A stretch of DNA of 64,000 nt from the NCBI RefSeq assembly GCF_003018235.1, contig NZ_CP027437.1. One strand, written 5' to 3'. The notes below the pieces were generated by a model. That model saw only the letters and a list, made by a program, of their open reading frames with translations, searched no databases and was not told the origin of the DNA. Positions within the stretch are counted from its first letter, which is position 1. Every line of letters begins with the position of its first letter. The translations under genes and the position numbers were made by a program. The stretch comes from Escherichia coli (GTDB lineage: Bacteria > Pseudomonadota > Gammaproteobacteria > Enterobacterales > Enterobacteriaceae). Positions 29,948 through 38,190 of the stretch are shown piece after piece.

Positions 29948-30856
29948 TACTGCTCCTGAGATATTAACAGGAGTAAGTGTAGACGTTGGGAAATGATGTT
30001 TGTGAAGTTAATCCTGTTGTAGCAGGGCAAAATTACGAAAGCACGCTCCCCGCAAGGACTGACGCCAGATAGTTTCTGTCCATGGCTGCCCTTTCCATTC
30101 AAACGTGAAATCAATAAGTTCATCAGGGACATCGCAAACAATATGAAGTCAGATTTCTTCTCTGCCGTGACTCTTTTCACTCATTGCGTAACTGTCATGC
30201 TCTGGATTATTTAATTCTTTCAGTGGAATTTTTTCCTCAAAGGCTTTATTTAGCCGCCCCTGATTTCCTTTTACAGCGAATAAATAATCACCTCCCTGTT
30301 TTTGTATCTTCTCTGCAATATCTTTCTGGCAACCCATCGCATCAGTTGTGATAATTTTTCCTTTAATATCCAACATGTTAAGAAGTTCAGGGGTAACTCT
30401 AATCTCATTGGATTTCTCATCCGTCTTGATCTGTCCGATGACCAGACTGTGCATTGTTCAGAACGCACTAATGACATGAATCGCTCCCCTGCGGCGACTC
30501 TTGTCATAAGAGTGCCGGAGCGTTTTTCCATCAATTGCAATGACGCCTTTATCATCTGAAGAATGGCAGTCACGCATCCAGTTAATAAAGCACTCGTGAA
30601 ATTTTGCAGGACTGATACAGGATACAACTCTGGCAATGGTATCGTGAACAGGAATACCATTTTCAAAATCACCATATTGTTTTAAAAAATCGAGATGTGT
30701 TTCCCCAAAATCCTCTATATCTTCCCAGCCTTCTGCACCAGAAATAACGGCACAAATAGTCAACAGTAGAATATCCGACAATTTATGTTCCACTTTCCAG
30801 GCTTGTCTGTAATCGGGAATAATAGAAATATGTTCCATCAGTTTTTTAAGTTCCAT
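29947..30856 (-). mobile_element. ISAs1-family (H-repeat-associated) transposase gene, disrupted (in-frame TGA at 30458-30460 and a downstream frameshift)
   Basis: Three consecutive minus-strand ORFs (30458-30856, 30149-30454, 29947-30180) which I recognise as pieces of an H-rpt/ISAs1-type transposase ([32 protein letters not shown]… / …[28 protein letters not shown]…). Confidence 0.75.
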
Positions 30857-31056: not shown

Positions 31057-31422
31057 TTAACAATATTTAACTTCATATTTCCCTATAATATCGAACACAT
31101 GGTCATAAGTACTGATAATTATGTGCTGAACTCCATCTCTTTGGATATCCTCTACTAAATCGAAACTTGATTTAGTATATTGTTCAAAAGGATAATCATC
31201 AACTTTGTATATAGATAACTTTTCAATTTTGCTAATAAAAAACTCGAGACTAATATCATAAGCATCTTTAATAGCAGGTTTGCAGGCAGACAACGATAAG
31301 GAAGCTTTGATGGTAAAGTTAAATGGATACAGATTTAACTCTGTCCCAGTTAAAATCAACGCATCTCGACCATATATTTGACCATATTTTGTTTCTAGTG
31401 CTTTTACAATCATATTAGCCAC
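31057..31422 (-). CDS. Putative immunity protein paired with the orphan Rhs C-terminal toxin
   Basis: 121-aa AT-rich ORF whose start (GTG 31422 or ATG 31413) abuts or overlaps the stop of the upstream orphan toxin frame, the usual toxin/immunity arrangement. No recognisable family. Confidence 0.55.
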   Translation of the reverse strand: MANMIVKALETKYGQIYGRDALILTGTELNLYPFNFTIKASLSLSACKPAIKDAYDISLEFFISKIEKLSIYKVDDYPFEQYTKSSFDLVEDIQRDGVQHIIISTYDHVFDIIGKYEVKYC

Positions 31423-31882
31423 AACCTCTTGTCCTCACTGTTCTGCCGCCATTTTGAGTTGAAAATCTTCGATCTAAATTAATTTTTGACAATTCCTCTG
31501 GAGTAGCCCATCTCGAAGGAATCTTCGATACACCGGCTGCTTTGGCAGCATAAAGTCGTCTGTTATCTAAAGTAAAGACTGAATCTTTATGAGCACCTTG
31601 TGATAACAATCTCTCTTGAACATTTACAGGTAAATCCCGCATTCTAACTTTTCTAATAGGTTCAACGTGATTTATATATGACGGGTCATTTATAAGTCTG
31701 TGAATAAGTCCATTAACATTTCTTCCGTCTTCAAAAACACCATTCATACTATCTTGTGAGAATAGAATTGTTTTAGGACTTACTGGTGATAATCCAAGAG
31801 GATCTATCCATGATAACGGGTTTGGAACATAACTATAGAGGTTTAATCCCCCCTCCAGCCCTATCGGGTCAGGATGCGCAAT
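31415..31882 (-). pseudogene. Orphan Rhs C-terminal toxin module (start-less fragment retaining only the DPxGL end of the Rhs core)
   Basis: Minus-strand frame reads …DPIGLEGGLNLYSYVPNPLSWIDPLGL followed by a ~125-aa unique domain (…MNGVFEDGRNVNGLIHRLIND…TLDNRRLYAAKAAGVSKIP…). The frame opens after a stop at 31883-31885 with no in-frame start until M at 31747. Confidence 0.7.
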
Positions 31883-32006: not shown

Positions 32007-32435
32007 TTATTGGTGCTTCGATTTAAAAAACTCCCAATACTTTGGAGTATATCCTTTAAATGCTCTATGTTTCCCTTTTTCATAAGCTTTCAGGAAACAT
32101 TCGTAAGCCTCATCGTTTTCACCTAATTCTAGACAAACACCCCCTAAGTTAATCAGTTCAGATGTGGAATATAGTGGAATTTCACACTTAAAAATTTCAA
32201 CTGCCCAGTATTTTGCCTCATTATATTTTTTAAGGTCAAAATACACACCATAAATGCAACGAATCAACCATGCAGAAACTCCATCACCAAAAGAATATTT
32301 CGGCTCAGGTAAACTATCCCACAAAGAAAGATAAAGTTTTAAAGCACCATAGGCATCTCCTTGATCTTCAAGAACGTTACCATCTTCGATTTGCTTTACT
32401 ATGCTTTCTTCAAGCACTGGTCTGGTACTACTCAT
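32007..32435 (-). CDS. Putative cognate immunity protein for the main Rhs C-terminal toxin
   Basis: 142-aa AT-rich ORF 73 nt downstream of the Rhs stop on the same strand. No recognisable family. Confidence 0.55.
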   Translation of the reverse strand: MSSTRPVLEESIVKQIEDGNVLEDQGDAYGALKLYLSLWDSLPEPKYSFGDGVSAWLIRCIYGVYFDLKKYNEAKYWAVEIFKCEIPLYSTSELINLGGVCLELGENDEAYECFLKAYEKGKHRAFKGYTPKYWEFFKSKHQ

Positions 32436-32508: not shown

Positions 32509-35500
32509 CTATTTTATGATTGGCGGTACAATTGGAGGTGTCACTGGTGGTAAGTATACTTGACCAAGTTTAGCCCCAGCAGAACGGTTAAGAGAATAAT
32601 GATCCAAATAATAATTTTTTGAATCCAGCATCCAATCCCTGACAGGTTTAGACTTCGGCCCCAAAAATCTACCAGTATTATTCCACCATGTAACGGCATC
32701 TGTCTTATGAGACATATCTGCTTCACTTAATGGATGCCAGACACCTTCAGAATCTTTAAACTCCATCCGGGAACCTGTCCCTCTAATTTTTCCATCATTT
32801 CTCATCCGAGCAATAACCTCACGGCCTGTTCGGCTATTCTTCCCTGGGGTTCTTCCTAAGAAATCACAACGTTTTGACAGCCCTAATGGGTCAATCCACC
32901 CCAGCGGATTAGGCGCATAAGCATACAGGTTCAGCCCGCCCGCCAGCCCTATCGGGTCCGTTACCATGAACCGCCCGACATCCGGATCATAGTACCTGTG
33001 CAGATTGTAATGCAGCCCCGTTTCCCTGTCGAGGTACTGTCCCTGGTAGCGCAGGTTCTGCTCCACCCCGCCGTGGTCCTTCTCCTGTATCGTGTTACCC
33101 CAGACCTGATACCCCGTCTCCCACACGATTTTCCCGTCGCTGTCCGTCATCTCTTCCGGCGCGCCGTTCACATCCGTGTGAAAATACAGTATCCGGTTCG
33201 GGCCCTCTTTACCCACCTTATCCACCCGCGCCAGCGGTTCATAACTCCCCGGGTCGCTGTAGATATACAGGCTGCTTATTCCCTCCGGCCTGCTCTCCTG
33301 CGCCAGCCGCATTCCGTCCCATAAAAATGTCGTCCGGTTGTACGGTTTACCGTCAGGGCTGATGTGCTGTTTTTCCGTCCGCCTCCCCAGCGCATCGTAC
33401 ACATACCGGTACGTTCCCCGCGCTGTCGTCACTTCCACCATCCGGTGTTCCGCATCATAACGGTAACTCTGCGTGCCGCTCCGGCCCTCCTTTTCCACCG
33501 CACGGCCAAATTCGTCGTAACGGTAGTGCACACCACGGTAAGACATCAGCCGGTTGAACGGCACCACGCTGTTTTCTGCCGTGGCCCTTTCCCCCGCGCG
33601 CCGCGCCAGCAGGTTTCCCGCCGCGTCGTACTCCCAGCTCGCCAGATACCCCTCATCCTCCGAGCGGCACGCCGTGATGCGCCCCGTGGGGTCGTAGAAG
33701 TAATCCGTTTCCCCCCGCCGGCTGTGCCGCGTCTTCAGCAGTTCATCCTCGCCGCTGTAGCTGTACTGCCGGTCCGTGAACGTCTCCGGTACCACCCCGC
33801 GCATCCCGCTGTATGTCTCCCTGCGCTTCAGCCGCCCGGCGGGGTCATAAAGCTGCCGCGTGCTCAGTCGCCCCTGACTTCTGAGCACTTCCCGGTGCAG
33901 GGCGTCACGTGTGAACTCGCTGATGACCTCCCGGTCCAGATTTATCTGCTGGAGATGGCCGCTGCCGTAGTACAGATGACGCTGCGTTCTGCCGTCCGGA
34001 AAGGAGGTGGCTGTCCGGTTGCTGAGTTCATCGTACTGATGGGTCAGGACGCCCTGCGCCGTCTCCTCAGTCAGCATCCGCCCCAGTCTGTCGTAACTGA
34101 AGCGGATAATCTCCGGTGCGTCCATTTCCCCGGCATCCGACCGTCGGCGGCGGATTTCCAGTAGCTGGTCTGCCGCATCATGGACGTATTCCGTACGGCT
34201 ATCGGCTGTCTCCTTTGCCGTGAGCCGGCCCGCCGCATCACGTGCCAGCCGGTGGCGGATTTCACCGCCCCGGTCCCCTGTGAACACCACTTCCGTGACC
34301 GCGTTCAGCACGTTGTAACGGTACGTCTGGCGGCAGCCGTCCGGATTTATCTGCTCCGCCAGACGGTCCAGCACATCATGGCGGAACCGGTAGTTTTCTC
34401 CGTTCTCGTTCGTGAGCGTGACCAGACGCCCGTAAGCATCGTACCCGAACGCCGTCCTGCGCCCCGTCGCGTCTGTCCGGCTGCGCACCCGGCCCTGCCC
34501 GTCCCGCTGCCAGCGCGTTATCCTCCCCATCGGGCTGGTGTACTTCACGAGCCTGCCCGCCGCGTCCGACTGGTAATTCACCGTGCGGCCGTCCGCCAGT
34601 ATCACCTCCGTCAGGTGGCCGCTGTCGTCATACCCGTAGCGCGTGCTGTGGCTCTGCGCGTCTGTCATCCGTATCAGCCGCGTGCGTTCGTCGTAGAACC
34701 AGGCCGTCTGCGAGCCGGAACAGTCCGTGTGCCGCATGAGCTGTCCGTCTTCGTTCCACTGAAGGTATTTATTCCCCCCGCGCGCATCCGTTATCTGCAC
34801 CACCTGACCGTGGCGGTCATACTGATACCGGGTGTTCTGCTGCAGCGGGTCGGTCACCGCAAGAAGATTGCCGCGTTCATCGTACTCACAGCACCAGCTG
34901 TTCCCCGCCGCGTCCACCTCCGTTTCCGGCTGGTGCCACACCGGGTGCCACTGTGTCTGTGCCACCCGCCCCAGCGGGTCGTGCGTCTCCGTGATATGCC
35001 CCTGCCGGTCATACACATAGCGCCATTTGCCGCCCTGCGCATCGGTCATTCCCAGTAACAGCCGTTCTTCGTCGCTCCAGCGGAACGTCGTCACCTGCCC
35101 GGCTTCGTCCTGGTACGCCGTCACCTGGTTCTGCGCGTCCCACTGATGATAACGCGTGCGCCCCAGCCCGTCCGTCACGCACAGCCTGCGTGCCGCGAGG
35201 CTCCACGCCAGCCGGTACTGTTCACCGCTGTCCGTGTGGTGCCCCGTCACCCGCCACGCTGCGTCATCCGGGCCTTCATACCAGCCCCACTGGTAATAAT
35301 ACCCTTCGCCGCCCGGCTGGCGGTGCAGGGTCATGCAGTGGTTTTCGTCGTAAGCAAACTCGCGCAGCAGGTGCCCCGTGCTGTCGTACACGCCGTTCAG
35401 GTCGCCGGCCTCGTCATAGCGGTAACGACGCAGCAGTAAAGGAGCCGTCTCAGGGAAATGCTGATAAATCTGTGTCACCCGCCGGGGATGCGCCGCCAGT

Positions 35501-37188
35501 TCATAATGCAGACGGATGCACGGACGCTGCTGTTCACCGCTGATTTGCGTGATGCGCCCCAGCTCGTCGTAGTACAGATTCAGACAGTTGCTGTTGCGGT
35601 CGCCCAGCATTTTCAGCCGCTGGTGCTGCGGGTGATGCGGGTCGGCTTCAAACAGAAAAAACTGCCCGTCATCGCTGCTGATAAGCCAGTGCCCCTGCTC
35701 ACCCCGCCGTACTGCCAGTCCTTCGCCGGGGCTGTAAAACCCGCTCCCCGGCAGCACAGCCTCCATATCCAGGCGTCGTCCCATGCCCGACACAAAGGTC
35801 ATACAGTTTTCGTCAGCAGTACCCGGCGTGCGCACGAGGCTGACTTCATACATCACGCTCCAGCCCTGCCCGAACATCCCTTCCGTGCGGTCGTCACGAC
35901 TGCTGTACACGCGCTGCCAGTCCAGCGGAAAGTGGCCCGGCAGACTGAAGTCAAAATCATCGTCATCGGCCAGATATTTGGCTCCGGTGGCGGCATTGAC
36001 CGGATGCGGAAGGGCACTGATGGCCTTCTGCGTCATCACCCCCATCCCGACACTGGCAGCAAAACAGGCGATTTTAGAAAGCATTTTGCCCGGGCGAAGA
36101 AACATCAGCGCCACGGTTGCCACCAGGGTTATCTGCGACCTGCCGCTTCTGATATCCCTGACCACCAGTAACGGACCGCCAATGCGGACATCCGGTGACA
36201 CAAACGCCCCGTTCCCCGGCTCATTCACCACCCTGGCCTCGCAGGTGCAGCGTGCCCCGCTGCGTGCCGCCGGCTGGCTGTTGATACGCACATCCCGCGC
36301 GCCTTCCGCGATATATTCCGCTGCGGGCGGTTCATCATCGCCTTTGAACAGATTACTGATGCTGCCAATAACCGCATTCACTCCCTGAAAGGCGGTTTCC
36401 AGCATACCGCCCGGACTCAGCAGGTTAAGGGCCGTTCCCAGGGGGTCATCCAGAAAGGCGGCTTTTTTTTGTGCGAGAAACTGCGTCAGTGAGGAGGGAT
36501 GTTTATGGCAGTCGATTTTATCGTCAGGGGTCGGGGTGGAGCCCGGGGCCGCACTGGCCACGGTGGGCTGCCATAGTTCCGACACAAAATGTGTCACGCC
36601 ATCCACCATTTCAGAACGCCCTTCTTCCGTACTGAGCTGGTCATGCAGCGCCCGGGACATCAGCACAGGCCCTGTCACCGGGTTAACCGCCAGGGCTATG
36701 GCCCCCGCCATTTCCAGATATTCCCCGGCCACATCCAGGAACGTTCTGGCGTCCTCCTGACGCTGCGCTTCTTCCTGTTCCGCCTTCGCCTGCGCCTCCT
36801 GCGCCTCAATGTCCTGCCGCGATGCCGCAGTCGCCGCGGCCCGCGCGGCAGGTTTGCTGTTGATCCATGTGTCGCCAGAGCCGGTGAGGATGTAACCTTC
36901 AATCTGAGGCGGGAAAAGCATATTTGCGAGGTCTGAACAGACTTCGCTGACCTTTTCTGTCACGCCGGTGTACACCATCGCCACACCCGCCACAAAACCG
37001 GTCAGCACGACGGCCGTGCACCCCATAGTGATCCCCGCTGACGTCGCCAGTAACGAGGTTGTGCCGACAATGAGGGCATCAATAACGACATTTGCGGCCA
37101 CCTCCAGCACCGCCCCCAGCACATCTGCCATAAACGACGTATGCAGCAGGGCATCACCCTGCCTTGCCGCCCAGAATGCCTCTTCCAT
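32509..37188 (-). CDS. Rhs-family polymorphic toxin with N-terminal prePAAR motif, transmembrane segments, PAAR-like motifs, YD-repeat core and variable C-terminal toxin domain (putative T6SS-delivered effector)
   Basis: 1559-aa ORF. N-terminus [16 protein letters not shown] matches AARxxDxxxH; hydrophobic stretches follow; PAAR-like motifs (…WINSKPAAR…, …[11 protein letters not shown]…); many YD repeats; core ends [27 protein letters not shown], then a ~120-aa tip. Core is very GC-rich, tip AT-rich. Confidence 0.85.
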   Translation of the reverse strand: [1559 protein letters not shown]

Positions 37189-37206
37189 GTCCCGTTCCCT
37201 GTGTGA

Positions 37207-37436
37207 TTAATTCGTCCCGGCTTCCTGCCGCATCCTGAAGCGCAGATTCTTTTTAATTTCAGCCCAGCGCGTCATATCTGCCGGGGTCAGCGGTGTGGTT
37301 CTGGCGTAGGTGAAGGCCATCATGACCCGCTCACCCGGCAATACAAATGCCACCTGACACTGGTACACCTGCTCGTTACCCCGGAGAAACTGGCTCTGTA
37401 TTTGCAAACCGCCTCATTGAGATAATATTCCGTCAT
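37207..37436 (-). pseudogene. Possible remnant of an Eag/DUF1795-like chaperone gene immediately upstream of rhs
   Basis: ATG at 37436 with an AGGA RBS gives MTEYYLNEAV… then terminates; the +1 frame continues as …QIQSQFLRGNEQVYQCQVAFVLPGERVMMAFTYARTTPLTPADMTRWAEIKKNLRFRMRQ, ending 19 nt before the rhs start. Family assignment is from memory and weak. Confidence 0.35.
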
Positions 37437-38190
37437 AATAGAAGTCGTCCTTTTTAATAAATGAATTATTTATTGACAGGTTCTGTTTTTTAATCATGAA
37501 TGTAATGTCTATCACCGCTTTACAGCACTCTTTATCTTTCAAGCGGTAATCACTAATAACATTAAGCAATTACCCATATTTACAATGACCGGAACTGATA
37601 TGCCGTTATGTATTTAACAATCCCAACATATTCACCATACCAATAAAATCACGAGTAACAAACACGCTACCGCCTCCATATAAAAAATGGACAGCTTATA
37701 AAATTGCATCTTGCATAGAAAGGGCTGAGATATCGAGTGTATTTTAATTATCAACTATAAATCTTGAATATTTTCATTAACAGAAACACATCTTATCCCA
37801 TTAGATATGTTAACAATCAATTATTCTTAACATATCACTAAAGTATATATTACTCTCTTTACTATCTGTTTTTATTGCGGTAGCGATATTAATAGCAAAA
37901 TTCGGAATTTATTTAGATGCTGGAATAAGAAAAAATGATGACGGCTTTCTTACCTTACCCTGAAGTTTCAGGAAAGTGTGTAAGGAAGGATGCAACCTAA
38001 CTGGAGATTTCTGAGGATCTAGTTGCTTAGAGCGACAATGAAGGTGAACGCATCCAGAGTAGTCCTATGAAAGGATACTATTGAAAATTGATGCTAAAAC
38101 AGTGATTAAATGAACAACACCATGGAACCCGTTGATTCAAAACGCCTAAACCAGCCCCCTGATACGAGGCTGGCTTAAACGCGCAGGCAA

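Follow-up and report, generated by a model that had tools for sequence, protein, structure and literature searches.

An internally deleted eagR pseudogene upstream of an intact prePAAR rhs gene in Escherichia coli, probably replaced in trans by a paralogue at the ansP locus

A gene for a DUF1795/DcrB-type Eag chaperone normally stands directly upstream of a prePAAR rhs gene such as the one contained in the 64-kb stretch of E. coli DNA analysed here (the window, 64,000 nucleotides). In the window this position is taken by a short, disrupted reading frame. This raises the question whether the short frame is what is left of an eag gene and, if so, how the effector encoded behind it could do without its chaperone. 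An earlier note, made from the letters of this DNA, had proposed a decayed Eag-like gene that starts at an ATG preceded by a ribosome-binding site (RBS) and continues in a second frame, and had considered that the effector may be unstable or non-deliverable or may use a chaperone encoded elsewhere. The gene order around the locus is kdpFABCD (38.6-45.8 kb, plus strand), ybfA (38397-38191), the remnant (37436-37207) and rhs (37188-32509), followed by a candidate immunity ORF of 142 aa, an orphan ORF pair, ISAs1-type transposase fragments, ybgA, phrB and dtpD. All features of the eag remnant and of rhs lie on the minus strand (Table 1).

Table 1. Coordinates of the eag remnant, the rhs gene and adjoining features in the window.
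Feature	Position	Strand	Evidence
eag upstream region, retained	37437..37493	-	AGGA 37451-37448 and one weak sigma-70-like site 37493-37465
eag 5' end, retained: ATG and codons 2-10	37407..37436	-	pairwise alignment and tblastn
deletion junction, gene nt 30 fused to nt 254	37406..37407	-	alignment
eag 3' 200 nt, retained (gene nt 254-453, residues ~85-150, TAA 37209-37207)	37207..37406	-	
38-aa ORF from the native ATG, nonsense peptide	37320..37436	-	frameshifted past codon 10
66-codon ORF from a TTG made by the junction, Eag C-terminal fragment	37207..37407	-	
eag-rhs spacer, 18 nt, rhs ribosome-binding region (GGGAACGGGAC)	37189..37206	-	
class I-type prePAAR Rhs effector gene, intact, 1559 aa	32509..37188	-	clean ORF and Pfam
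142-aa candidate immunity ORF, directly downstream of rhs	32007..32435	-	position only

Comparison of orthologous rhs loci, which the earlier note had recommended, yielded an intact counterpart at the identical position. In strains M1 and 100416 a 453-nt gene (150 aa), annotated as 'DcrB-related protein', lies between ybfA and rhs and ends 18 nt before rhs. With an intact allele (L004:6041-6493) as reference, affine-gap pairwise alignment showed that the window lacks 223 nt, gene nt 31-253, corresponding to codons 11-84 plus one base. The junction was taken from this alignment, as a MAFFT alignment of four eag regions put the 5' flank in the wrong place. Over 218 nt, the remnant differs from intact alleles at 1-4 positions. 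Concordantly, a tblastn search of the whole 64-kb window with the intact 150-aa orthologue recovered residues 84-150 at 97% identity (E 1e-41) and, as a second piece, the start of the gene (residues 1-17 at 37436-37386, with the first ~10 residues aligned at the ATG), and revealed no other eag within the window. Since 223 is not divisible by three, the deletion alone causes the frameshift and a second lesion is not needed; the internal deletion suggested earlier is thus borne out, while the separate frameshift suggested along with it is not. A two-event origin, consisting of an in-frame 222-nt deletion between TGAA microhomologies followed by loss of 1 nt, was considered and set aside, because one deletion of 223 nt (nt 31-253) is enough to account for the length and because the differences in the left flank fit the general upstream divergence of ~15-20%.

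As a consequence of the deletion, the retained 3' part is out of frame relative to the native start codon. The frame opened by the ATG at 37436 reads MTEYYLNEAVCKYRASFSGVTSRCTSVRWHLYCRVSGS and stops at 37322-37320 after 38 aa, and the frame one base over reads LQIQSQFLRGNEQVYQCQVAFVLPGERVMMAFTYARTTPLTPADMTRWAEIKKNLRFRMRQEAGTN, 66 codons from 37407 to the stop at 37207. The frame disruption that had been described therefore holds, as does the RBS-preceded ATG (37436-37434), which follows AGGA (37451-37448) at a spacing of 11 nt in an arrangement that is the same in intact alleles. The retained start of the protein is MTEYYLNEAV, compared to MTEYYLNETV in intact alleles. Two lengths needed correction by one unit each: the repaired product, rightly called short against ~150 aa, comprises 76 rather than ~77 aa, and the remnant, rightly placed close upstream of rhs, ends 18 and not 19 nt before the rhs ATG at 37188. 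The intact loci have the same 18-nt spacer.

Family membership was assessed by the profile search of the repaired product that had been proposed as a check, and by the corresponding searches with the single frames and the intact orthologue. The 66-aa frame matched Pfam DcrB (PF08786, formerly DUF1795) with 25.3 bits (E 1.8e-5) over profile positions 77-126 of 127, and the repaired 76-aa product scored 26.3 bits. Both values are just under the gathering score of 27.2 bits for DcrB, as would be expected of a domain fragment. The intact orthologue reached 69.6 bits. For the 38-aa frame the sole Pfam match was ADAMTS_C at chance level (E 0.032). Through the intact 150-aa orthologue the remnant is also related to structurally solved Eag chaperones: residues 19-124 matched Salmonella SciW (6XRB, 6XRR, 9MVG) with E ~7e-4, and EagT6 was weakly matched (E 0.28). 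We regard homology of the remnant to DcrB/DUF1795 as established at the level of sequence. Together with the intact orthologue at the same locus, this supports the assignment as a decayed Eag-like gene made in the earlier note.

No single ORF of the remnant contains a complete DcrB domain of ~130-150 aa. The region aligned to SciW falls mostly within the part deleted in the window, and the deletion removes, by position, the region with the majority of the EagT6 contacts listed in PMC7773334. A product lacking most of the surface that grips the transmembrane (TM) helices cannot act as an Eag chaperone, and we infer that the remnant has no Eag function. Alternatively, the remnant might still be useful, either as a 66-aa fragment translated from the TTG at the junction or as a 76-aa fusion produced by ribosomal frameshifting, and might serve as a mini-chaperone or as partner or modulator of a full-length Eag dimer. 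A GAGG motif lies 4 nt upstream of the junction TTG, Eag proteins form domain-swapped dimers, and the 66-codon frame is open in 13 of 13 inspected alleles. However, an open 66-codon frame is expected without selection in alleles that are ~98-100% identical, and the substitutions in this frame, 4 synonymous and 4 non-synonymous, are too few at eight to be informative. Moreover, the native ATG lies in a different frame that ends after 38 codons, reading of the junction sequence revealed no slippery site, and profile positions 1-76 of 127 are gone along with most of the named contact residues. We consider a useful remnant highly improbable. As judged from these comparisons, the remnant represents a dead eagR, the gene of the DUF1795/DcrB chaperone normally found upstream of this prePAAR Rhs.

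A base-calling error, which the earlier note had wished to see excluded by re-sequencing, is ruled out by the distribution of the allele. A 50-nt query spanning the junction was found in 96 of 5,426 complete E. coli genomes, at one place in each, with 100% identity in 77 genomes and 94-98% identity in 19 more. The carriers come from many laboratories, hosts and countries, and all truncated alleles inspected are exactly 230 nt long (13/13). A metagenome scan with a 22-nt upstream signature matched only two independent contigs, both with the same truncated allele and junction. Furthermore, a loss of 223 nt is not the type of change that base-calling errors produce. This excludes a sequencing artefact, and we regard a sequencing or assembly artefact in the genome of the window as practically inconceivable. 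The uniform length and junction of the alleles indicate a single origin.

The occurrence of the same short ORF at orthologous loci as a conserved intact gene had been named as a finding that would speak against decay. The short ORF does recur, in 96 genomes, but these copies are recent relatives with ~98-100% identity and are annotated as pseudogenes, and therefore give no evidence for a conserved short gene. The RefSeq/PGAP label is pseudogene, 'DcrB-related protein (or hypothetical protein); incomplete; missing N-terminus'. PGAP thus reads an N-terminal truncation. This is not quite correct, as the alignment shows an internal 223-nt deletion with the RBS, the start codon and the first 10 codons still in place. 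Internally deleted eagR pseudogene would be a better label for the remnant than 'missing N-terminus'. Public annotation already flags this pseudogene, which is an ordinary one from a well-described family of chaperones and is common within a minority lineage set of E. coli.

The two sides of the junction differ in their relationship to the intact ybfA haplotype. To the right (37207-37406) the window is ~99-100% identical to it, and to the left (37407-37690, ~280 nt including the 30 retained nt) identity is ~80-85%. The right side of the junction and the rhs core diverge by ~1% from the copies at a second chromosomal locus, beside ansP, compared to ~5% from intact ybfA-locus copies, and the C-terminus of the remnant, AGTN, is that of the ansP Eag. 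The junction may therefore be a recombination seam at which an ansP-type eag'-rhs segment was imported or converted into the ybfA locus. An intact parent allele with the left flank of the window type was absent from the E. coli matches listed and from the metagenome scan with the upstream signature, in which both contigs were truncated; hence, the exact breakpoints and the recombination origin stay inferred.

Within this upstream flank, the promoter scan found one sigma-70-like site against 3.3 expected by chance, and the promoter/terminator scan detected no terminator upstream of the remnant. Transcription of the remnant and rhs is presumed to be driven from the retained upstream region. Between 29.5 and 38.8 kb, a scan with Rfam gave no credible match, the best being IS128 with 22.6 bits (gathering score 80). 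In strain M1, where eag is intact, an ISEc1 (ISAs1-like) element lies inside the ybfA-eag intergenic region (L003 4633-5769), which marks the AT-rich spacer of ~750 nt between ybfA and eag as an insertion target.

The earlier description of the downstream gene as a prePAAR effector was confirmed. The prePAAR motif AARxxDxxxH is present as AARQGDALLH at residues 7-16 of Rhs, and Pfam detected a PAAR_motif (33.9 bits, cut-off 27), DUF6531 (68.9 bits), RHS_repeat (256.8 bits over 12 stretches) and RHS core (54.3 bits). Kyte-Doolittle hydropathy calculation indicated a single N-terminal TM region: the protein is hydrophobic at about residues 18-77, and within the first 420 residues windows of 19 residues with values of at least 1.6 are centred at 27-44 and 60-68 only. 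The remnant thus lies directly upstream of a prePAAR effector gene and in the same orientation. The C-terminal tip of Rhs (~120 aa, 32509-32880) had no Pfam match, and for the 142-aa candidate immunity protein Pfam gave only sub-threshold TPR matches.

At other loci with the truncated allele, rhs is annotated as intact in 13 of 16 cases and is disrupted in strains 13P477T, A36 and 2014C-3338. All ten C-terminal tips compared behind truncated eag were different, and the immunity genes following them differ as well, including Imm26, MafI, Imm8 and several hypotheticals. These differences imply that toxin/immunity cassettes kept turning over behind the dead eag. Such turnover, read from the sequences of present-day loci, appears hard to reconcile with a locus that has been dead since the loss of eag.

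Several features at the far end of the island were recorded in addition. An overlapping ORF pair on the minus strand at 31057-31747, encoding 110 aa (31415-31747) and 121 aa (31057-31422), stands where related loci have orphan rhs toxin-tip/immunity modules; Pfam matched neither of the two. A transposase at 30149-30856 (minus strand), which from recognition of its sequence and from neighbouring annotations we take to be ISAs1-like (H-repeat), is split into at least two ORFs of 132 aa and 101 aa and is probably a frameshifted pseudogene. ISAs1/ISEc1 transposases are annotated at the same rhs-island end in related loci. In most related rhs islands at ybfA and ansP, the last gene encodes a SymE-family toxin and lies in opposite orientation (comparison loci L003, L004, L005, L009-L013, L015, L018, L019 and L025). 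Within the window, neither symE (tblastn) nor vgrG was found.

Intact copies of eag appear to be present in most genomes with the truncated allele. A 228-nt query representing the deleted middle segment was found in 204 genomes, and any part of the eag region in 212. By subtraction, the truncated copy stands alone in up to ~8 genomes, and at least ~88 of the 96 carriers also possess an intact copy. In all five carriers inspected at this locus (GPEC996, 2009C-3133, R32_14_1F, 20Ec-P-124 and LCP30S3_I5), an island at ansP/yncE, which we take to be the rhsE position of K-12, comprises vgrG, an intact eag (150 aa), rhs, an immunity gene and symE. The Eag encoded there is the identical protein WP_000141612.1 in four of the five genomes and shares 147 of 150 residues (98%) with the intact ybfA-locus Eag. 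LCP30S3_I5, which also has the truncated allele at ybfA, carries the ansP eag 18 nt upstream of an rhs whose product is identical to the window Rhs over residues 1-130. This strain and MEI003 are the closest relatives of the window in flanking core genes (99.1% and 99.4% identity, respectively), and both carry the truncated allele.

The ansP island itself is not uniform. In GPEC996 (L005 12445-16755) and 2009C-3133 (L010 7445-11755) the ansP rhs is a frameshifted pseudogene next to an intact vgrG and an intact eag. At ybfA the situation is reversed, eag being dead and rhs intact, so that one working set is split over two loci. The TM region of Rhs (window 36909-37113, minus strand, rhs nt 76-280) occurs in two cassette forms, A and B, with 96 differences in 205 nt, inside rhs 5' ends that are otherwise near-identical. 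Both cassettes were found behind truncated eag as well as in cis with intact WP_000141612.1 (comparison loci L005, L006, L009-L013, L015 and L017-L019).

PrePAAR effectors and Eag genes co-occur at the genome level, and effector stability and delivery require Eag (Ahmad et al., PMC7773334). High Eag specificity has been reported in the same study, for chaperones that are only 25% identical to each other (PMC7773334). A paralogue with 98% identity that is already paired with an identical Rhs N-terminus is thus a credible chaperone substitute. Furthermore, because the ybfA locus has no vgrG of its own, the window Rhs relies on factors encoded elsewhere in any case. Supply of the chaperone to the window Rhs in trans appears most likely on this evidence; as the ansP locus of the window strain lies outside the 64 kb, trans supply is extrapolated from relatives.

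The opposite outcome would be a stranded effector, with no usable substitute chaperone, an Rhs that is unstable or not loaded onto the T6SS spike, and a locus in early decay. This reading draws on the requirement for Eag in stability and delivery and on the possibility that chaperones are effector-specific (PMC7773334), on a window devoid of another eag or a vgrG, on the disruption of rhs in 3 of 16 loci with the truncated allele, and on the carriers, ~8 at most, in which subtraction leaves no intact copy of the deleted segment. Against it stand the clean 1559 codons of rhs in the window and the intact gene at the other 13 loci, the ten different tips with matching immunity genes, which imply upkeep after the deletion, and the near-identical Eag in all five inspected carriers, in cis with an identical Rhs N-terminus. 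An intact rhs is in itself no proof of a working chaperone, since among three carriers that show one eag-like place only, rhs is intact in two and disrupted in one, and the loss may be recent. We consider a stranded effector unlikely, though clearly less so than a functional remnant. Of the two outcomes raised in the earlier note, the population data favour a chaperone encoded elsewhere over a non-deliverable effector.

Altogether, eagR was inactivated by deletion, and we think it probable that its loss is tolerated through the ansP paralogue acting in trans. A single net 223-nt deletion joined codon 10 to the +1 frame, leaving a 38-aa nonsense peptide, and the last 66 codons survive only as an out-of-frame fragment representing the last ~40% of the domain. 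According to this account, the loss would be tolerated since the second module, vgrG-eag-rhs beside ansP, supplies a near-identical Eag, and this Eag and the VgrG encoded beside it would stabilise and load the window Rhs. The remnant itself would persist mainly as 5' leader and promoter region of rhs. On balance, we lean slightly towards the further proposal that the ansP Eag and the adjacent VgrG form a shared hub for Rhs proteins encoded at two distant loci and for both TM cassettes.

If the hub exists, the deletion allele represents a natural, population-scale experiment on a class I prePAAR effector without a cis chaperone, in which the effector stays functional and swaps toxin tips over the long term. 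If trans supply is real, the carriers offer a natural system for studying the specificity of Eag toward effector TM helices and for asking if rhs loci far apart rely on one vgrG-eag hub. Strains with the allele, among them the mouse commensal MP1, are available. For annotation, a broken upstream gene is an insufficient reason to score rhs as dead. The relevance of the locus lies mainly in annotation and in judging the weaponry of a strain, as no new kind of system is involved, and a single vgrG-eag hub probably serving two rhs loci is its only, mildly interesting, aspect.

Among known systems, the intact gene belongs with the Eag family, represented by Salmonella SciW, P. protegens EagR1, Serratia EagR1/2 and the E. 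coli EagR of vgrG-eagR-rhs islands. With EagR-type chaperones the window copy shares the PF08786 family and the position 18 nt upstream of a prePAAR-TMD-PAAR-Rhs gene; unlike them, it lacks codons 11-84, is frameshifted and is a pseudogene. E. coli EagR has been described beside vgrG and rhs (PMC7216683), and the ybfA locus differs from such vgrG-eagR-rhs islands by having no vgrG of its own. The RefSeq pseudogenes ACU5SI_RS15925, AM456_RS03615 and MJ49_RS03805 represent the same allele, with 230 nt, the same junction and 98-100% identity. In the ansP island, the last 64 residues of the remnant recur identically in WP_000141612.1, including AGTN, and the 5' end and core of rhs are ~99% identical to those of the window. 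This island differs from the ybfA locus in its chromosomal position, its own vgrG, its intact eag and an rhs that is a pseudogene in two of five genomes.
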